Positions 21,891 to 54,407 of a stretch of 64,000 bases of DNA are shown piece by piece. The translations under genes were made by a program, and so were the position numbers. The notes under the pieces are model-generated. The model made no database searches and was not told the DNA's origin. It was given only the letters and a program-made list of their open reading frames with translations. This DNA comes from a phage, in sequence record PZ168832.1; one strand, written 5' to 3'. Position 1 is the stretch's first letter; each line of letters opens with the position of its first letter.

Positions 21891-24248
21891 TTATTTCGCT
21901 GCTTTCAGCGCGGCTATCTCTGCCTTGAGTTCATCTATCTGATCCATCAATGCAAGAATAGCCTCGTGGTGCAGTGCTGCTGCTACACCTGGTGTGTTGA
22001 CAGATTTTATGTTATCCAACGTCGAACCGTCGCGCAGAGTAACAGGCGATGACTGTGTTTCAGATACTGCTTCAGGAAAGTCTTTCTCTACATCCTGGGC
22101 GATGAAGCCAAAACCGACGGAGCCATTAGTTTCCAGAGTCCATGCCACGCCTCTGATGTTGCGCATCTTGACAAGTGGATCAGTGATCCGCTCAATGTTA
22201 CTTTTAATACGTTCATCAGATATACTCCGCCACTCCTGACACCTTGCTATTCCATCGGAGCCAAAAAGATAAGAGGCCGCGCCGCCTGTCCCGCTGTAAA
22301 CGTTCAATTGCGCGCGGTCCAGCGTGGTCGTGCTACTCCTTATGCCTCCGAGAATCCAGCTTCCACTGTACCAGTCACCGCTGATTGAGTTTACAAAATT
22401 TCCTTCTGGAACGTTGGCATAGTTTTGAATCCTTATGGCGTTGTTTTCTGCAGCAGCAACGCCTACTGAATTAACTGGGGATGCAACAAGGTCTTTAGAC
22501 CGGATATATGCATCAACAACTATTGTCCCATCAGGGCGCAGAGTTCCAATCTGGGATGTGGAATTCGGCAACACCAATTTGCCATCTTGGTTAAATGCCC
22601 ACTCTTGCACCCCATTAGATATCACAGCACCTTGTTCAGACGTCAATCCATCAATTTTGCCGTATGCCTGCAAGAATGCTTGATACGCGATGTTCGTGCC
22701 AATCTTATATTCAGATTTTACACTACCGCCTCTGACAAGCATTCCGGCTGCAGGTTTTACTGCGTCGCCGTTAATCACACTCCAAGAAGTATTCGCGGCA
22801 ACAAATCCACCCGATGCACGAATCACCCAAACGCCAACAAAGTTGCGACCCATGATTTCGTCAGTTGCCGCTCCATAAATCGGGCTTGATCTGGATGCAT
22901 CAATATTTATTGTATTGAGACGCCCCTCTACTGCCCCGCTTCCAACAGGTATGGTGTCGCCAGCGCCTTGGGGGTACAAATCGTTGTTTGTGTAAAAAGC
23001 ACCTCGGACGGCTGTGCCAAAGATTTGCGCATAAGTGCCTGCCGATACACCAGCGGCTGAGCCTGTGATGTTTGGTGCAGCAGATTCAAATATTTGACCG
23101 TTCGCAGTGGAGTTGCCGCCATCACCGCGCCCGTAAAGCGCCCGTACAGAGCCTGTCTGAACACCGTTAAGGTCTGGGACACGGAATGTCGTTGTGCCGT
23201 TACCTGAAGAATATTTTGCACGTTTGAACTTATCCGCAAGCCAGTCGGCATCTGCGATGGGCGAAAGCATTTGCGCATACGCCCAAAGTTCAGGCCAGTC
23301 AGCACGGTTTAGCAATTGCCCGTCTGCAACGACTTCGTATGGCTGAATATATGATCTACTATTGCGAAGATGGAAATCGCCAACACCATAGTTCATGACG
23401 CCGTTCATACTTGGACCAACGGTGCCTGTGTTTACTAAGTTTTCAACCCAACGCTTAGTCGCGGCATCATAATCATTTACAGGGTCGCCAGCGAGCGGCG
23501 TTGATCCTTGTGGACGGATGTTTAGCCACGCCTGAGCATTATCTGCAGAGCCTGTGCCGCCCATTGAAGTTGGAACGATGCTCTGATCAGCAACAGGGCC
23601 GAATCCAAAAGCAGACTTCATCCCTTGGATGGTAGTTTGCCCTGTGCCGCCGTTGGCGACTGGGATGACAGATTTACTGTTGTATAATTGCGCCCATTGA
23701 CTCCAAACCCCATTTACCGCGTTGTAAGTCCTTTGGTATGTAACATTGTTGTAATATGTTGAGTATCTTTGGACGCAACTTTCTATTGATGGTCCAGTTT
23801 TTAGGACTTCAAGGACTCCTGCTTGTGAAACTGGGTAATTAAGAACAGTCTGAGCATCTGCATTGAAGTCTTGGAAATAATTTCCAAACCAAGAGCCTGT
23901 CAGAAAGTTGAGATTTATCCCAGAAGGAAGTTTGCCATAATTTCTTACAACCCCTGTTAAGGTCGCAGCAGTGTTACGAATAGAAAGCATGTCACCAGCA
24001 GACCATGCACGCGCTGCCGTACCTTCTTGTGCGCGCTGCACGGTCAGGACGTCTCCAACCACGGCTGTCACTGTGACAATTTCGAATTGGCGGCCTGTTG
24101 CAGCGTCGACGATTGTCGCCACTACACGCTCGTTCGCGCCCAAGGTCGGAAATCCCGACCCTGAGCGAATTGTGATTGTGGTGTCTGAAGTCGTCGTTGG
24201 TTGAGCCAGCGCGACCTCAAAGTTGTTTTTGAATATTAGCCTTGGCAT
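21891..24248 (-). CDS. Tail fibre / tailspike protein with C-terminal intramolecular chaperone (peptidase S74-like) domain
   Basis: 785 aa; Gly/Ser/Thr-rich beta-type body; collar-like FRVPDLNGVQ...GRG; C-terminus SDERIKSNIERI ... GFIAQDVEKDFPEAV ... ALMDQIDELKAEIAALKAAK typical of auto-cleaving chaperone domains; GAGGA RBS. Confidence 0.75.
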   Translation of the reverse strand: MPRLIFKNNFEVALAQPTTTSDTTITIRSGSGFPTLGANERVVATIVDAATGRQFEIVTVTAVVGDVLTVQRAQEGTAARAWSAGDMLSIRNTAATLTGVVRNYGKLPSGINLNFLTGSWFGNYFQDFNADAQTVLNYPVSQAGVLEVLKTGPSIESCVQRYSTYYNNVTYQRTYNAVNGVWSQWAQLYNSKSVIPVANGGTGQTTIQGMKSAFGFGPVADQSIVPTSMGGTGSADNAQAWLNIRPQGSTPLAGDPVNDYDAATKRWVENLVNTGTVGPSMNGVMNYGVGDFHLRNSRSYIQPYEVVADGQLLNRADWPELWAYAQMLSPIADADWLADKFKRAKYSSGNGTTTFRVPDLNGVQTGSVRALYGRGDGGNSTANGQIFESAAPNITGSAAGVSAGTYAQIFGTAVRGAFYTNNDLYPQGAGDTIPVGSGAVEGRLNTINIDASRSSPIYGAATDEIMGRNFVGVWVIRASGGFVAANTSWSVINGDAVKPAAGMLVRGGSVKSEYKIGTNIAYQAFLQAYGKIDGLTSEQGAVISNGVQEWAFNQDGKLVLPNSTSQIGTLRPDGTIVVDAYIRSKDLVASPVNSVGVAAAENNAIRIQNYANVPEGNFVNSISGDWYSGSWILGGIRSSTTTLDRAQLNVYSGTGGAASYLFGSDGIARCQEWRSISDERIKSNIERITDPLVKMRNIRGVAWTLETNGSVGFGFIAQDVEKDFPEAVSETQSSPVTLRDGSTLDNIKSVNTPGVAAALHHEAILALMDQIDELKAEIAALKAAK

Positions 24249-48422: not shown

Positions 48423-51161
48423 ATGCAAAAGTTTGACACAAACCTGTTGCAAAACCTTAAGTGGATGCAGAACAATGCGCCAAACATCACATCTTTGGTG
48501 CAAAAGAAAAGTGACTGGTATGAAAGATACCAAGATCAGTTTTGGACTGACTGGTACAATAACATTTTTAACATTGACACTTGTGATGCAATGGGCATTT
48601 ATATTTGGTGCGACATCCTTTGCATACCAAGAGACTTTGTGGACTTAAGCAACTATGAGCACAACTGGGCGTTTGGACCCACACGCGACAATTTCGAAGG
48701 GCCGGACAATATCGGCGGCAACTTCTTTGGTGCTGGCGGAAAGGTTGTGAAAAACATCGAAGAAGCCCGCATCCTTCTGAAGCTTCGTTATCTGACGCTT
48801 ACAAGTGATGGCCGCATAGAAAGCATCAACCGTATGCTTAAGTGGATTTTCAACCGTGGAGAAGATTGGGATTACTCTTCATCGCGCTACGCATATGTGA
48901 CAGATAATACTCAAGGCGCGGTGTCTTCTTCTGAAGCAACAAACGGCTCATTCCTTCTGTACGACTGGCAGGGGTCAACTGAGATTCAGCACGATTATAA
49001 ACAAGTTCTTTTGAGCCACGGCAACAACGCAGGACTTACCATAAGTGGGGTGGCAGGGACCGTTTCGCGAATGGCACACCCAGACTGGTATTCATGGGGT
49101 AATGGTTCCGGCGCTGGTATTGTCGGTGGCGACACCAGACAGTACGGCGGCCCTGATTACTATGGACAGTTGTGTGGCGATTACCCAGGTGAGGCAATAG
49201 AGAATTTTGCCAACGCAGTAAGGGTCGTCAAGACGGCTTCAAGCGGTGAGCCTGTGTATTCTTTGGCTAATAATCCAAGCGCACAGTCAATTGCCCTTCC
49301 TTCGCAGGCTGGCGTTAACGTTTGCTATAGCTTCTACATAAAGGTGCTTTCTGAAAACGTCGCTTCTGTTTCTGTTACAGAGAATAGTGATGCATCGAGC
49401 AATGGAAAGCTGTTTGACCCCGTCACCGGCCAGTTCAACTTGGACCCGTCATTGAGCTATTTCATCAAAGGCAAATTCGATGGAGTAAGAAGGGAATCAA
49501 ACCGTGGTGGCATAAAAGCAATTGGCGGCGATTGGTATCGAATCTGGATTGTAGAGCAGACGGCAACCGCTGCTTCTGGAGTAAGTACCAGCTTTTCAAT
49601 AGAGTTGAAGGCGACTGCCGCTGGATCAACTCAAACTCGTGAATTGCCTGAAGGGTCTGATGCACTTCTTTTTGGATACTCGATTTGCGTCTGCGACCCT
49701 GTTCAGAATCCAAATGGGCCTGAGCCTTATTTTTATGGAACGCAAAACCCTCCTTCTGACGGAACAGCAATACTGTCTGTAACGGCGGGAACGCTCAACA
49801 ACATCTCCTGTGCAAACGGACCGCTGACGACAAGAAACGGTGTGGTTGGCGAGTCATTCATGCAACCTGGCTCATCACTTGCATACTCTGGCTCAATCGG
49901 CGGCTACCCGTACCCAGGGAACGCCACATTGATTGCAGAGACTGACGGCATCAGACGCTCATGGAACGTTAGCAGGCTTGATGGAGTACCGCCGCCGCCG
50001 ACCGCTGACTATTACATGGAATACGTCATCGGACCTTATTTCGCCAACAACCTGTCAGACAACTTTAAGACGCTAGTTGGCGACAGGAATGAAGGATTCT
50101 TGCCAGCAAATGCCGGAATACGTTGGCAGCTTTACCAAGAAGTCGCAGACTTATCTGATATTGATTTGACCGTCAGCAACATAACAGACACGCGAGTAGG
50201 ATTCGAAACGGAAGGTGTCGCATGGATTAACACTGACGGCATCATCAGAGTTGGCGGCATAAACGAGTGGCCGTTGAACAACTTCAAAGGTGTTATACGA
50301 CAGCTTGAATCTTTGAAAGGTGTGAACCAAGTTATCGACGGCGCACTTGTCAACGACTATTCAATCTCAAAAGCATCAAGAGATGACTTTGGTCGTGAAA
50401 TCCCACGTGCCGCGATCACAAACTACTGGCGATACACACAGCCCAATGACGGCACATCTTTTGGAAATATCGTCAAGGACGGAGATAACACGGTAACGGC
50501 GACGCCAATCAGCGGTGTGCCCAACCAGTTCCCATCATTCAAGCTTTCCGCTACAATAGGGACTGTGCCAGCGTCCGGCTATGCACGTGCTGTACTTGCT
50601 ACTAAATACACTGGCAACCTGACTGGTCCTTTGTCATTTATCGCAATAGTTAAAAACAACACGGTAAACGGTCAAAAACTTTTCGTAACCGTACCGGATG
50701 GTATGGGCGGCTATATCCCTAAATTCTACAGCATAGGCGCAGGTGATTTGCAACGTATCGAAATTGACCTTGCCGCTGAGATTGTTGCAGGAACGACTTG
50801 GGATGGTTCGACAGGTGGAATCAGCATTGGTTTGATATCAGGGAAAGACTTGCCGACCGAAGTTGGTACGACTCTTGAACTTGATATTTTAAGCTTGATG
50901 CTTGTTTCTGGTAATACGATGAATGCTCTTGCGATTTCAACAAGCGAAGATTTTGCAAAGAAAACTGCAACTTCTATATACATCAAAAACCCAGGGTCAC
51001 TGGCGACTGGAGTTCAATTGATAGCTTCGAATGGGGATGTTGTAGCGACAGTAAACTTTCCAAGAAGTGCTGCTGGCGGTTATGTTTCAAGCATGAATAT
51101 AACTGACTTGACTGGTGATTGGGCATCGACCCTTTTATCAAAAATTAAATACATCGTGTAG
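48423..51161 (+). CDS. Large tail fibre / baseplate-attached protein
   Basis: 912 aa, Gly/Ser/Thr/Asn-rich; GAGGAA RBS. Confidence 0.55.
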   Translation: MQKFDTNLLQNLKWMQNNAPNITSLVQKKSDWYERYQDQFWTDWYNNIFNIDTCDAMGIYIWCDILCIPRDFVDLSNYEHNWAFGPTRDNFEGPDNIGGNFFGAGGKVVKNIEEARILLKLRYLTLTSDGRIESINRMLKWIFNRGEDWDYSSSRYAYVTDNTQGAVSSSEATNGSFLLYDWQGSTEIQHDYKQVLLSHGNNAGLTISGVAGTVSRMAHPDWYSWGNGSGAGIVGGDTRQYGGPDYYGQLCGDYPGEAIENFANAVRVVKTASSGEPVYSLANNPSAQSIALPSQAGVNVCYSFYIKVLSENVASVSVTENSDASSNGKLFDPVTGQFNLDPSLSYFIKGKFDGVRRESNRGGIKAIGGDWYRIWIVEQTATAASGVSTSFSIELKATAAGSTQTRELPEGSDALLFGYSICVCDPVQNPNGPEPYFYGTQNPPSDGTAILSVTAGTLNNISCANGPLTTRNGVVGESFMQPGSSLAYSGSIGGYPYPGNATLIAETDGIRRSWNVSRLDGVPPPPTADYYMEYVIGPYFANNLSDNFKTLVGDRNEGFLPANAGIRWQLYQEVADLSDIDLTVSNITDTRVGFETEGVAWINTDGIIRVGGINEWPLNNFKGVIRQLESLKGVNQVIDGALVNDYSISKASRDDFGREIPRAAITNYWRYTQPNDGTSFGNIVKDGDNTVTATPISGVPNQFPSFKLSATIGTVPASGYARAVLATKYTGNLTGPLSFIAIVKNNTVNGQKLFVTVPDGMGGYIPKFYSIGAGDLQRIEIDLAAEIVAGTTWDGSTGGISIGLISGKDLPTEVGTTLELDILSLMLVSGNTMNALAISTSEDFAKKTATSIYIKNPGSLATGVQLIASNGDVVATVNFPRSAAGGYVSSMNITDLTGDWASTLLSKIKYIV

Positions 51162-51171
51162 AGGAACGGCA

Positions 51172-52959
51172 ATGCCAACACTTATTAACAGACCTTTCGC
51201 GCAAAGCGGTGATGTATCCGTGGTGCCGGATGCAAGCCCAAGTGGTTATGTGAACTTCCAGCGCGGATACACCCCTGACTATGCGCTTGCTCTGGCGGCT
51301 GGAAACGTCTCCGCGAAAGCTGTTGAGCGCGAATCGATGAACTGGTTGTTGAATCTGATTACAGACAACCTTATGTTTATTCAAGATCATGGCGCTCAAC
51401 AATATTTCTCTTCTGACTTGAAGCCGGATGGATACCCGAAAAACGCCATCGTAGTAAGCAACTCTGGAACTCCTTCAGCGCCTGAATGGCGCATTTTCCA
51501 GAGCGTAGTTGACGGAAACACAAGCGCCGTCCCGGCCAACGGAGAAACGGAATCTTGGCAGGAATTAACACTGCCCAGCGAAGCGCGAAAATACATTCCT
51601 ATGCCTGCTGGCGGCGATGCGCAAAACCCGTATTTTGTTCGCGGATTGATTTCAAGTGTTGTTGACTTTGACAATATCACGACTTCCACAACTATCGTGA
51701 TTCAATCCGATGCCGTTGCCGCTCTGTGCTCTAACATACCGAATGCTGTTGGCGCAACGAAGGTTGCAGGTCGGCTGCAGGTATGCGCTTGGCAGGTCGA
51801 TGAACAAACCTTTGCCTTGCAGCAATATACATCAATGAATGGCTATTTGTTTACTCGCTCTTATACTTCTGGTGCTTGGAGTGCTTGGATTCAAAATGCC
51901 ACTGTTCAAGACGTTCAAATTGGAACGCCGAATCTTGCATCAGGTAAAGGAGCGCAAGACATAATCCTTACCGTCCCAGCAGGTTATTCATGGCCTCCGT
52001 CAGCAGGTAGTCGCCTGACAATCGTCAATGATGTGACGACTACCGGACCTGTCACTGTGACCATTGGTGTAAACAAAGTTGCCGTTCTTGGATTCGACGG
52101 CAGCGAGTTGCCAGCTGGCGCTATCGTAGGCCTGTTGCCATTCACCATCATCTATGACGGCACTGTTTGGCGTCTTCTTCAGGCATTCGGCGCGGCGCAA
52201 ATCGGCGTTGATGCTACGGAGCCGCAGCAGTTTGTTACCAAAAGGCAACTTGACGCGCTTGCCGCGAAGTTGATTACCATGGGTGACGTATTCGAAGTCG
52301 GTGAGACTCGATTCCTTACCAACGGGACCAACCCGAATACTAAACTGGGCGCTTACGGCCAGGTATGGACACGACTGCCTGATAACATGGTGATTCGCAC
52401 GTCCGGCGCTGCGCGAAACGGTCTTGATACAGGCGGAGCAGACTCTGTTACTCTCACCGCCGCCATGCTTCCTCTCCATAATCACAGCGTGAACATTACC
52501 ACGCGACAAAGTGGTCCATGGTCCAATACCACTGGAGACGCAGGCAACCATAACCACACAGGCGATACCAGTCAAAACGGCGCTCACGTGCACGGAATGG
52601 ACACGGCAGGCAACCACCATCATGACAGTAGCTGGGGTGAAGCGAATACGAACGATGCACGATACGGCGTTTATGATGGAACACACAACAACTTCGGAAG
52701 TCGAAAGGGCGGCGACTGGGACAACTACAAATACAACACTTCAACCAACGGCAACCACGTCCATAATATTCAGTCGTCTGGATCACACACCCATGGGTTG
52801 AATATAAATTACGCTGGCAATCACAGCCATAGCTATACCCTTCCCGCTCACACTCACGATGTGGTCGGTAACACTGGCAACGCAGGGCAGTCCGTTCCAA
52901 CGGCTGTTTCAACCCTGCCGCGATATGTCGTCTTGAACGGCTGGTACAGAAGCGCATAA
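51172..52959 (+). CDS. Tail fibre protein with His-x-His repeat tip
   Basis: GAGGA RBS then ATG at 51172; C-terminal region has seven HxH motifs (NHNH, AHVH, NHHH, NHVH, SHTH, NHSH, AHTH). Confidence 0.65.
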   Translation: MPTLINRPFAQSGDVSVVPDASPSGYVNFQRGYTPDYALALAAGNVSAKAVERESMNWLLNLITDNLMFIQDHGAQQYFSSDLKPDGYPKNAIVVSNSGTPSAPEWRIFQSVVDGNTSAVPANGETESWQELTLPSEARKYIPMPAGGDAQNPYFVRGLISSVVDFDNITTSTTIVIQSDAVAALCSNIPNAVGATKVAGRLQVCAWQVDEQTFALQQYTSMNGYLFTRSYTSGAWSAWIQNATVQDVQIGTPNLASGKGAQDIILTVPAGYSWPPSAGSRLTIVNDVTTTGPVTVTIGVNKVAVLGFDGSELPAGAIVGLLPFTIIYDGTVWRLLQAFGAAQIGVDATEPQQFVTKRQLDALAAKLITMGDVFEVGETRFLTNGTNPNTKLGAYGQVWTRLPDNMVIRTSGAARNGLDTGGADSVTLTAAMLPLHNHSVNITTRQSGPWSNTTGDAGNHNHTGDTSQNGAHVHGMDTAGNHHHDSSWGEANTNDARYGVYDGTHNNFGSRKGGDWDNYKYNTSTNGNHVHNIQSSGSHTHGLNINYAGNHSHSYTLPAHTHDVVGNTGNAGQSVPTAVSTLPRYVVLNGWYRSA

Positions 52960-52967
52960 GGTGATTT

Positions 52968-53612
52968 ATGATTAATGCAAACGTAATATCTAAAGGGACC
53001 GGATGCAGCATGGATGTCGCAGAGAAATGGGTGGACCCTTTCAAGCAGGCTTGTGAGCACTACGGAATCAAAAGCAAGAATGCCATCGCGGCATTCCTTG
53101 CAAACGTAGGAGTAGAGACAGGCAGCTTGAGAACATTTGTGGAAAATCTCAACTACTCTGCACAGGGTCTTGCCAACACGTGGCCTAGCCGTTACAGCGT
53201 CAGCGGTCGTTTCGGTGGCGCACCAAACTCCTTGGCGTTGTCGATTGCCCGTAAACCAATGGAAATCGCCAATAATACATATGCAAACCGAATGGGAAAT
53301 GGTTCGGTAGCATCTGGCGACGGTTGGAAGTACCGTGGCCGTGGTGCCATTCAGCTGACTGGAAAGGACAACTATGCAGAGTATTCAAAGCAATCAGGGT
53401 ATGACGCCTTGAATAACCCTGACATTTTGACTGAGCCGAAATACATCGCTGACAGCGCGGCGTGGTTCTTCAAGAACAGCGGTTGCATTCCACTTGCCGA
53501 TGCGGGTGCATTTGATTCGACCGTGAAGCGGATTAACGGGGCCGCGCCGAATACGGCTAACCATGGGGATTTGCGACGGAAGCGTTACAAGGATGCACTA
53601 GCAGTTATGTAA
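52968..53612 (+). CDS. Endolysin, glycoside hydrolase family 19 (chitinase-like)
   Basis: AAFLANVGVETGSL and YRGRGAIQLTGKDNY match GH19 catalytic signatures; no signal peptide or TM. Confidence 0.8.
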   Translation: MINANVISKGTGCSMDVAEKWVDPFKQACEHYGIKSKNAIAAFLANVGVETGSLRTFVENLNYSAQGLANTWPSRYSVSGRFGGAPNSLALSIARKPMEIANNTYANRMGNGSVASGDGWKYRGRGAIQLTGKDNYAEYSKQSGYDALNNPDILTEPKYIADSAAWFFKNSGCIPLADAGAFDSTVKRINGAAPNTANHGDLRRKRYKDALAVM

Positions 53613-53637: not shown

Positions 53638-53850
53638 TTATTTCACGGCTTCAACCTGGACTGGCGGCGCGGAACTTGTATCAATGTCTGGCAAGTCGAA
53701 GTAATACCCCGCCATGCCAATCACGCCAACAATCGCGGCCCGTGCCACCTTGTTGCTAATTGACTCCCCAATAAGCTTTACCAACAGGGACAAGATTTGA
53801 GACGTCAAAGCCTTTTTCAGCCTTTTGTTTTCTTCCAAATCTTTCTGCAT
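53638..53850 (-). CDS. Small single-TM membrane protein
   Basis: GGTGG RBS then ATG at 53850; hydrophobic VARAAIVGVIGMAGYYF. Confidence 0.4.
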   Translation of the reverse strand: MQKDLEENKRLKKALTSQILSLLVKLIGESISNKVARAAIVGVIGMAGYYFDLPDIDTSSAPPVQVEAVK

Positions 53851-53864
53851 AACTACCACCCATG

Positions 53865-54407
53865 TCAACGCACATCCTGTGTCTTAACATTACCTGAAGC
53901 ATCTCTTAAGGGCAGTGGATAGTAGGCCATTTGGTAGTCTGATACGCCTTCAACATGATAAAACACGATTACGTCTTTGCTGTTGATGAGCATGTTAACG
54001 ACATCTGATTTATCTTCTGGAGTGAGTATGAGTGCGCCGCCTGTCCTGCTGTCTACTGCAACAGGGTATGTCTTGTCGACAAGGCCGCTGTCCAATGTAT
54101 TATACCTGACAACGATTTCAGCGGCATCAACTTTTGCAATTGACATTCCGAACACAAACGACACGACTTGGCGACCGCGATCATTCATTACGCACATCTT
54201 TTCCTTATCAAACCTTTCCTTTATCACATCATATTTGTTCCAGCAAAATTCGAACGATTGGCCGTTGTTAAAATATCTCGTTAACACTTTGGCATTACTA
54301 TTTGGCGGCGTAAACATACTTTCAGCCGCTGCACTTTTGGTGAAGAACAAGACTGTCAGCATAGCCATGATGGTGATCAAAACAATCTTTAAAGTTTTCG
54401 ATTTCAT
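53865..54407 (-). CDS. Secreted / periplasmic protein, unknown function
   Basis: N-terminal MKSKTLKIVLITIMAMLTVLFFTKSAAA; AAAGGTG RBS. Confidence 0.5.
   Translation of the reverse strand: MKSKTLKIVLITIMAMLTVLFFTKSAAAESMFTPPNSNAKVLTRYFNNGQSFEFCWNKYDVIKERFDKEKMCVMNDRGRQVVSFVFGMSIAKVDAAEIVVRYNTLDSGLVDKTYPVAVDSRTGGALILTPEDKSDVVNMLINSKDVIVFYHVEGVSDYQMAYYPLPLRDASGNVKTQDVR

Follow-up and report, generated by a model that had tools for sequence, protein, structure and literature searches.

Eight HxH motifs in a tail fibre of a Wifcevirus-like phage mark a putative T4 gp37-type tip joined to a Pbunavirus-type anchor

Results

The window analysed here is a stretch of 64,000 nt of phage DNA that belongs to a Wifcevirus-like E. 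coli myophage, and the tail fibre gene under study occupies 51172..52959 on the plus strand (595 aa plus stop, from the open reading frame and its translation). Its ATG start agrees with the annotations of the orthologues and is preceded, at a distance of 6 nt, by a Shine-Dalgarno-like GAGGA read from the sequence of the same strand (51161..51165), which overlaps the final base of the TAG stop of the upstream gene (51159..51161). The fibre gene is 88-94 % identical in nucleotide sequence to 29 Wifcevirus records, and its product, which matches phrog_5717 (tail protein) with E = 4.5e-173, is the "second" tail fibre conserved among the Wifcevirus phages. The upstream gene (48423..51161, plus strand) encodes a 912-aa baseplate wedge ("triplex") protein, recognised by phmmer and by Pfam DUF2612, whose residues 4-186 match Pa193 gp46 "baseplate wedge 2" (9b45_v, phmmer E = 1.5e-41) and the E217 triplex protein gp45 (8env_K, phmmer E = 5.5e-41). 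A GH19-type endolysin gene lies directly downstream of the fibre gene, and PHROG scans of two small minus-strand ORFs downstream of the fibre were uninformative. Public records name the Wifcevirus fibre only "hypothetical protein" or "tail protein".

By phmmer and tblastn, residues 1-370 of the fibre (51172..52281 on the plus strand) correspond to a baseplate anchor and a bead-like shaft, both of the Pbunavirus type. Residues 2-372 align with residues 4-368 of the Pa193 gp47 tail fibre (PDB 9b45_2; phmmer E = 3.2e-32), a stretch where gp47 has its anchor and bead domains (residues 1-340), and the match ends at fibre residue 372; tblastn with the N-terminus found 291 Pseudomonas phage records at ~34 % identity, and the fibre also matches phrog_4900 (E = 3.3e-46). 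In the Pa193 structure (PDB 9B45), the fibre contacts the wedge protein through gp47 residues 38-52, which dock on gp46, and a gp46 loop binds gp47. Because a wedge homologue is encoded upstream and the N-terminus resembles that of the wedge-docking gp47, the product is best read as a single-chain, baseplate-attached fibre, and the term "distal tail fibre" used in the initial annotation is not supported. The N-terminal 370 residues would plug the fibre into the wedge protein encoded just upstream, and the 912-aa protein is a likely site of attachment.

The C-terminal part of the fibre contains eight HxH motifs, at residues 436 (HNH), 460 (HNH), 472 (HVH), 482 (HHH), 529 (HVH), 539 (HTH), 551 (HSH), and 560 (HTH), which span nucleotides 52477..52857 and all lie within 52470..52870. 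Their spacings are 24, 12, 10, 47, 10, 12, and 9 residues, that is, 4 + 4 motifs around a gap of 47 residues. The presence and clustering of the motifs had been seen correctly in the initial annotation, but it counted seven and placed them all in the C-terminal 130 residues, where only six are found; seven are held by the last 136 residues. The overlooked motif is most likely the collar-proximal LPLHNHS at 436. Nearly all histidines of the fibre (18/19) fall within the last 171 residues, and 16 of the 18 tip histidines belong to HxH. Shuffling of the whole protein never reached eight motifs (0/200,000 shuffles, mean 0.57, maximum 6), shuffling of the His-rich last 165 residues alone did so 7 times in 200,000, and no other ORF in the 64,000-nt window with a length of 150 aa or more has more than two HxH motifs. 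The clustering of HxH in the fibre C-terminus is well beyond chance. Among six Wifcevirus orthologues, all 16 motif histidines are invariant, and the middle "x" residues 461, 473, and 483 vary together with the lone H505; the distant homologues show little or no variation in the HxH columns.

The motifs fall into a domain layout that was delimited mainly by alignment. A collar-like domain with alignment-derived boundaries (residues 371-435, …TGGADSVTLTAAMLP; 52282..52476, plus strand) precedes the needle and aligns with the collar region of T4 gp37 in hhalign; over this stretch, homologues score Pfam Gp10_C or Collar. It is followed on the same strand by a presumed ascending needle strand (residues 436-484, 52477..52623), placed by its motifs at 436, 460, 472, and 482 and by alignment to gp37. 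The 47-residue gap between the two HxH runs defines a presumed head (tip) domain (residues 485-528; 52624..52755, plus strand), which lies where gp37 has its head, between H929 and H966. Motifs and hhalign delimit a presumed descending needle strand (residues 529-562 with HxH at 529, 539, 551, and 560; 52756..52857, plus strand). The C-terminal segment (residues 563-595 plus stop, …LPRYVVLNGWYRSA; 52858..52959, plus strand) would form a strand returning to the collar. The last HxH motif stands 36 residues before the fibre C-terminus, the segment aligns in hhalign with the gp37 end …NIAFNYIVRLA, and a C-terminal motif, GWYRSA / VWRRTA, recurs in the homologues. For a target that is an obligate intertwined trimer, AlphaFold2 models of the tip monomer reached a mean pLDDT of 47.1 with the full homologue alignment and 49.1 with a trimmed alignment, A3, and in both of these low-confidence models of the tip fragment a strand at 220-225 pairs with 9-13.

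The resemblance to the HxH needle of T4 gp37 that the initial annotation had proposed is borne out by profile comparison. The A3 tip family profile matches T4 gp37 residues 811-1026 in hhalign with a probability of 98.7 % and E = 3.8e-16, over 181 columns that run from collar to C-terminus (T4 tip positions 3-215 of 216). In hmmsearch against the PDB, the profile of the tip homologues finds the gp37 structure 2xgf_A with E = 1.3e-14, a value that includes a bias of 45 bits and is to be read with the ability of G-, S-, T-, and H-biased repeats to inflate profile scores. Pairwise BLASTP between fibre tip and gp37 with composition-based statistics gives E = 3e-5. A homologue search with the tip returned 16 distant relatives and 0 Wifcevirus orthologues; the orthologues were taken from a phage collection and IMG/VR. 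The homology is visible only by profiles or pairwise BLAST: single-sequence phmmer of the tip against the PDB found no match at E ≤ 10, and Pfam gave no match at E ≤ 0.1 for the full fibre and, for the tip by itself, a single sub-threshold one to S_tail_recep_bd (E = 0.9). The fibre also stays below the gathering threshold for Collar (PF07484), Gp10_C (PF21939), and the Phage_fiber repeat (PF03335), whereas the homologues P0001, P0002, P0004, P0011, Kyle, and FelixO1 as well as T4 gp37 itself do score the Collar, Gp10_C, or Phage_fiber families.

Both proteins show the order collar, HxH needle, head, HxH needle, and C-terminal strand, and both have the motif context G-x-H-x-H-(S/T/G). As in the fibre, the motifs of T4 gp37 are split into two runs (883, 915, 929 and 966, 980, 989, 998), separated by 37 residues compared with 47 in the fibre. 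Identity between the tips is ~22-30 % only, and the motif-by-motif register with T4 is ambiguous, the BLASTP, hmmsearch, and hhalign alignments disagreeing on it. Nor is the number of motifs the same as in T4, as had been proposed: the fibre has 8 (4+4) and the gp37 tip 7 (3+4). With 2-36 motifs in relatives, no particular meaning attaches to the number. The tip module was found in more than 12,000 cluster representatives at E ≤ 1e-10, each with 2-36 HxH, and the distant homologues always have two HxH runs, a gap of 34-79 aa, and the 12-aa spacing. A convergent origin of the HxH sites was considered and rejected, since the profile homology extends from end to end and takes in the collar and the C-terminal strand, which are not repetitive. 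On these alignments, the tip reads as a homologous, horizontally shared module, and the fibre ends in eight HxH motifs because this module is homologous to the T4 gp37 needle. Independent invention in an "otherwise unrelated fibre", as first implied, does not hold, as the difference from T4 is confined to the N-terminal 370 residues.

Within the fibre, variability is highest in the presumed head (485-528), with 13 variable columns out of 44 compared with 28 out of 551 elsewhere (about 8-fold, Fisher p = 1.3e-6). dN is ~0.145 in the head and 0.008-0.02 in the shaft, and dN/dS is 0.09-0.16 in the head compared with 0.02-0.03 along most of the fibre. Three head alleles occur, with a window/FEC19 type, a ManiWeber type, and a WFC type among the isolates, and dN and dS are both raised in the head. 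Positive selection on the head was rejected, as dN/dS is only 0.09-0.16 and dS is raised too; low dN/dS together with raised dS therefore resembles the exchange of alleles.

Discussion

We consider it very likely that residues ~371-595 form a receptor-binding tip of the T4 gp37 type. By analogy with gp37, the tip would be a homotrimer in which each chain exits the collar-like domain, runs outward along the three-fold axis with four HxH motifs, builds a small head (residues ~485-528), and returns with four more motifs, until its final strand rejoins the collar and a thin six-stranded needle results. Each HxH level would hold one axial metal ion, coordinated by six imidazoles that the three chains contribute together; the needle would thus contain up to eight ions, which would stand in for a hydrophobic core and make it rigid and stable. 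In T4, the axial ion is Fe(II). The HxH histidines of T4 gp37 coordinate seven iron atoms (Islam et al. 2019, PMC6957217; also PMC12609058); H929/H931 are essential, and the gp37 head has OmpC and LPS as ligands (PMC6957217). Metal binding, metal identity, and trimer geometry of the present tip are modelled on these data, and we infer in the same way that the head would contact a conserved receptor on E. coli.

Two other readings concern the histidines themselves. The T4 short tail fibre gp12 has a single HxH site that binds Zn, and a tip with the same fold and coordination geometry could hold zinc, or a mixture of ions that depends on the host cytoplasm, in place of iron. The metal identity is not readable from the sequence, the first motif, LPLHNHS at residue 436, sits at the collar-needle junction, and the homologues score Collar and Gp10_C, families that are shared with the gp10/gp12 group. 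However, gp37 (2XGF), the nearest relative of known structure, is described as having iron at each of its seven sites (PMC6957217), and the G-x-H-x-H-(S/T/G) context is identical in both proteins; we therefore regard ions other than iron as unlikely. Far less probable still is that the histidine cluster is a compositionally biased, low-complexity tail devoid of structural metal sites, which resembles gp37 through composition. G, S, T, N, and H do abound in the tip region, the tip profile carries a large HMMER bias term against the PDB, and the AlphaFold2 monomer models of the tip are disordered. Nevertheless, the BLASTP match to gp37 is obtained despite composition-based statistics, the hhalign match extends over the non-repetitive collar and C-terminal strand, the tip histidines occur almost solely as HxH with invariant H and variable x, and the two-run layout with its 12-aa spacing is kept over thousands of relatives. 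We accordingly favour the gp37-type metal-binding tip over a biased tail.

A further question is what the gp37-type tip does for the phage. It is quite possible, though we lean slightly the other way, that the HxH fibre is a conserved "mechanical" or trigger fibre and that the variable T-shaped fibre (21891..24248) determines host range. This reading addresses what the fibre does rather than what its HxH tip is, and is compatible with a tip of the gp37 type. It was suggested by Humolli et al. (2025, PMC11990801), who argue from a conserved function, and it agrees with the 95-97 % identity of the fibre across Wifcevirus and with the low dN/dS along most of its length. In addition, four of four BASEL Wifcevirus isolates need the O16 O-antigen, a dependence that the same authors ascribe to recognition of this glycan by tail fibres and connect with the variable T-shaped fibres (PMC11990801). 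On the other hand, the presumed head is about 8-fold enriched in what little variation the fibre has, three head alleles with raised dN and dS are what would be expected if the head touched a (mildly) variable surface structure, and the equivalent head residues of T4 are those that bind OmpC and LPS (PMC6957217). Any search for the receptor contacts of Wifcevirus phages, a group with some relevance to the biocontrol of O157 and ESBL E. coli, should start at residues 485-528.

The folding of T4 fibres is helped by the dedicated chaperones gp38 and gp57A, and the gp38 gene lies immediately downstream of the T4 fibre gene. A tblastn search of the 64,000-nt window with T4 gp38 gave nothing better than E = 3.7, and the annotation of the Wifcevirus phage ManiWeber lists no fibre chaperone; folding of the present tip may therefore differ from that in T4, and a downstream gp38-type chaperone is probably peculiar to the T-even phages, not to the tip fold. 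We speculate, as a rather doubtful extension, that the eight-site needle may fold without a dedicated chaperone and that the head, with its few exchanged alleles, may be an unrecognised host-range determinant of Wifcevirus. If both were true, the fibre would offer a compact scaffold on which gp37-type tips could be retargeted without a chaperone.

The HxH tip is real but ordinary, because the module is very common and has already been published for Wifcevirus. Humolli et al. (2025, PLoS Biol) described a conserved Wifcevirus fibre with an elongated, T4-gp37-like tip and conserved HxH on the basis of an AlphaFold 3 trimer model (interface pTM 0.64; no motif count is given; PMC11990801). The gene can be annotated as a baseplate-attached tail fibre with a gp37-like, putatively metal-binding receptor tip. 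Beyond annotation, the finding has little weight; HxH needles are widespread, occurring in tens of thousands of protein clusters, and no open question is moved by it. It adds a further case of tail-fibre mosaicism, in which a Pbunavirus-type anchor is combined with a T4-type tip.

Compared with known systems, the gene appears as a mosaic, with a Pbunavirus-like anchor and shaft joined to a gp37-like tip. T4 gp37 has a shaft of roughly 800 aa joined to gp36 and is the distal half of a jointed fibre, whereas the present protein has an unrelated 370-aa anchor of the Pbunavirus type instead and would attach straight to the baseplate. In the Pbunavirus PaGU11, the gene order of wedge protein, fibre, and, further on, endolysin is as in the Wifcevirus-like phage, but the fibre (PaGU11_00044) is about 964 aa long, has 0 HxH and an unrelated C-terminal domain, and its gene is followed by a 142-aa ORF that the Wifcevirus-like phage lacks. 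By sequence comparison, the present fibre thus belongs with the Pbunavirus-type fibres by its N-terminal module only.

Within Wifcevirus, the orthologue of ManiWeber/Bas99 (Bas99_0031) has 96 % amino-acid identity, conserves all eight HxH motifs, and likewise sits between wedge protein and endolysin, but its head-domain allele differs. It is very probably the "Gp32" of Humolli et al. (2025), since it is the sole HxH-bearing fibre in the tail locus, although the number does not match the locus tag. Among other well-studied phage groups, the tips that come closest are those of the Felixounavirus fibres (Bas63 gp26/gp27; FelixO1 p142/p144), which are also single-chain and baseplate-bound. FelixO1-type tips are about 30-35 % identical to the present tip over all 226 residues, and cryo-EM of Bas63 has revealed collar-needle-head tips with di-histidine repeats (PMC12609058). 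The number of HxH is 7 and 6 in Bas63 (PMC12609058) and, by our count, 9 and 6 in FelixO1, compared with 8 here, and the Felixounavirus anchors and shafts differ from those of the present fibre, FelixO1 p144 having gp37_trimer and gp37_C domains. The fibre of Pantoea phage Kyle (KYLE_56, 628 aa) likewise combines a Pbunavirus-like N-terminus (33 % identity) with an HxH tip, which ends in …ILIGWYRYE and carries nine motifs (4+5), and its synteny with endolysin and DNA ligase matches that of the Wifcevirus-like phage, although the host belongs to another genus.

The fibre gene and its HxH motifs

The tail fibre gene (51172..52959, plus strand, 1,788 bp) encodes 595 residues from an ATG at 51172 that has GAGGA 6 nt 5' of it; a GTG at 51115, given by a mechanical ORF list, overlaps the end of the upstream wedge gene, and the ATG is the better start in view of the GAGGA and the orthologue annotations. 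The gene matches 29 phage records over its full length at 88-94 % nucleotide identity, all of them Escherichia/Shigella myophages of the genus Wifcevirus (including TH35, WFH, WFC, FEC19, ECML-117 and the BASEL phages Bas98-101).

We counted eight HxH motifs in the fibre (residues 436, 460, 472, 482, 529, 539, 551 and 560; nt 52477..52857), and their spacing of 24, 12 and 10, then a gap of 47, then 10, 12 and 9 divides them into two runs of four. Seven lie in the C-terminal 136 residues and six in the C-terminal 130, so the seven reported in the initial annotation for 52470-52870, an interval that contains all eight, was an undercount. The last 171 residues hold 18 of the 19 histidines, 16 of these 18 being in HxH motifs. 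Eight motifs appeared in none of 200,000 whole-protein shuffles (mean 0.57) and in 7 of 200,000 shuffles of the His-rich last 165 residues only; thus, the motif is real and not a by-product of composition, and the C-terminal clustering noticed earlier holds beyond shuffle expectation. Across six orthologues, none of the 16 histidines in these motifs changes, in contrast to the middle residues 461 (N/S), 473 (V/S) and 483 (H/Y), which vary, as does position 505 (H/N), the sole non-motif histidine of the tip.

A mosaic of a baseplate anchor and a T4-like tip

The fibre protein combines two modules in mosaic fashion. Its residues 2-372 share homology with gp47, the tail fibre of Pseudomonas phage Pa193, over the first 368 residues of that protein (PDB 9B45; E = 3.2e-32), a region that cryo-EM resolved as baseplate-binding loops and three bead domains, docking on a loop of the wedge protein gp46 (PMC11456595). 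The gene upstream encodes a 912-aa wedge protein (48423..51161, plus strand), the N-terminus of which is homologous to Pa193 gp46 and the E217 gp45 'triplex' protein (E about 1e-41). Therefore, the fibre is made of a single polypeptide that binds the baseplate directly, and is not the outer half of a jointed fibre, as the term 'distal' had implied. The wedge-protein match is confined to the first about 186 residues, and beyond residue about 190 there was no significant Pfam match; the 912-aa protein exceeds Pa193 gp46 and E217 gp45 (about 500 aa each) by about 400 aa, and the extension could supply a docking site for a second, T-shaped fibre that is absent from Pbunaviruses. A gene for such a fibre (21891..24248, minus strand; 785 aa) lies well away from the tail locus; the first 151 residues of the product are 85 % identical to the 'T-shaped' dual-RBD fibre of phage ManiWeber (Bas99, PQ850618.1), and its C-terminal part has a Peptidase_S74 intramolecular chaperone domain (residues 677-728).

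Single-sequence searches with the C-terminal module (residues 371-595) gave no PDB or Pfam match. A profile of 16 distant tip homologues matched the T4 gp37 tip (PDB 2XGF; E = 1.3e-14), hhalign aligned a trimmed family profile end-to-end with T4 gp37 811-1026 (probability 98.7 %, E = 3.8e-16, 181 columns), with the collar, which is not repetitive, and the last strand (…RYVVLNGWYRSA vs T4 …IAFNYIVRLA) both in the alignment, and composition-corrected pairwise BLASTP gave E = 3e-5. By these three sequence comparisons, the tip is established as a homologue of the T4 gp37 tip, so the proposal of a T4-like tip was essentially right, but its placement in an otherwise unrelated fibre was not.

Proposed architecture and head variation

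In T4 gp37, the HxH histidines bind a row of seven iron atoms on the axis, a change of H929 or H931 to alanine is lethal, and the head supplies the residues that bind OmpC and LPS (PMC6957217; PMC12609058). By homology, the tip would comprise a collar (about 371-435), an ascending strand (436-484) with four HxH sites, a head (about 485-528), a descending strand (529-562) with four more and a closing strand at the C-terminus, giving up to eight axial metal sites; metal binding, metal identity and trimer geometry are putative. Two AlphaFold2 monomer runs gave pLDDT < 50, and the two low-confidence models agree only in that the last strand pairs with one at the beginning of the collar region.

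This layout fits the invariant motif histidines, the gathering of variation in residues 485-528 and the raised dN there. Varying columns number 13 of 44 in this segment and 28 of 551 in the remaining protein (Fisher p = 1.3e-6), and at least three alleles of the presumed head are represented in the six orthologues, which are otherwise 95-97 % identical in protein sequence. Head dN (nt 52624..52755) is about 0.145 vs 0.008-0.02 in the shaft; however, dS is raised as well (0.9-1.6 vs 0.36-0.64 outside the head) and dN/dS remains under 0.2, so a reading as positive selection was rejected. The same values suggest that recombination swaps a few head alleles within a gene that is otherwise clonal and under strong constraint.

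Gene neighbourhood

A GH19/chitinase-like endolysin gene (52968..53612, plus strand) lies directly 3' of the fibre gene. A gp38-like chaperone was found neither downstream nor elsewhere in the window, and the ManiWeber annotation has none. In the Pbunavirus PaGU11, a 142-aa ORF with no assigned function (L007 5888..6316) lies between an HxH-free fibre and the endolysin; it is absent from this position in the window and in Pantoea phage Kyle, and we speculate that it may be a fibre-specific chaperone lost along with the tip swap. Past the endolysin are two minus-strand ORFs, one of 76 aa (53638..53868) matching only phrog_5165 (unknown function) and one of 180 aa (53865..54407) with a hydrophobic, signal-peptide-like N-terminus and no PHROG match; their ManiWeber counterparts are both annotated 'hypothetical'.

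Comparison with known fibres

The ManiWeber orthologue is Bas99_0031, annotated 'tail protein' and flanked by a 912-aa 'hypothetical protein' and an endolysin, in a gene order identical to that of the window. It is the sole HxH-rich protein of that genome region and very probably the 'Gp32' of Humolli et al. (PMC11990801), because their T-shaped 'Gp114' is likewise offset (Bas99_0109). The BASEL paper numbers thus differ from the GenBank tags, Bas99_0032 being the endolysin, and mapping ManiWeber genes by number is misleading. The finding is already published for a 96 %-identical orthologue. Humolli et al. reported an elongated tip resembling that of T4 gp37, with conserved HxH motifs, in the Wifcevirus fibre, for which they used an AlphaFold 3 model of the trimer (interface pTM 0.64), and they described the fibre as highly conserved genus-wide, suggesting a 'more mechanical role' (PMC11990801).

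With tblastn, the tip matched 318 phage records; those outside Wifcevirus are mostly Felixounavirus fibres (30-35 % identity across the whole tip), with further matches in Pantoea, Erwinia, Klebsiella, Citrobacter and other phages. The two fibres of FelixO1 carry 9 and 6 motifs; in phage Kyle, the fibre at the syntenic position combines the same Pbunavirus-like N-terminus with 9; and the PaGU11 fibre has zero. When 1.84 billion cluster representatives were searched with a profile, the E ≤ 1e-3 threshold was passed by 35,418 proteins and E ≤ 1e-10 by 12,364, some part of which is expected to be collar-only matches. The best 150 matches carry 2 to 36 HxH each (mode 7), with 12-residue spacing dominant, 4+3 the commonest layout in short proteins and 4+4 also present; therefore, motif count grows with the length of the needle and nothing special attaches to the T4 number, a point also made by the Bas63 authors (PMC12609058). 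The closest relatives outside phage records (P0001, P0004) are 'tail fiber proteins' of about 300 aa from Xenorhabdus bovienii and Izhakiella capsodis genomes, with only 4 HxH (2+2), a shared C-terminal …MGWYRSA and Phage_fiber_2 and Gp10_C domains; these, presumably fibres of prophages or tailocins, would have very short needles.

The T4 gp37 tip has seven motifs, at 883, 915 and 929 and at 966, 980, 989 and 998 (3+4 around a 37-residue head segment), so the motif count is not the same as in T4, as had been supposed. Both tips share the G-x-H-x-H context, whereas the fibre has one motif more, on the ascending strand, a longer head segment and an anchor of another type, and differs from T4 also in the lack of a gp38-like gene in the window. 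These differences leave the protein within a known kind.
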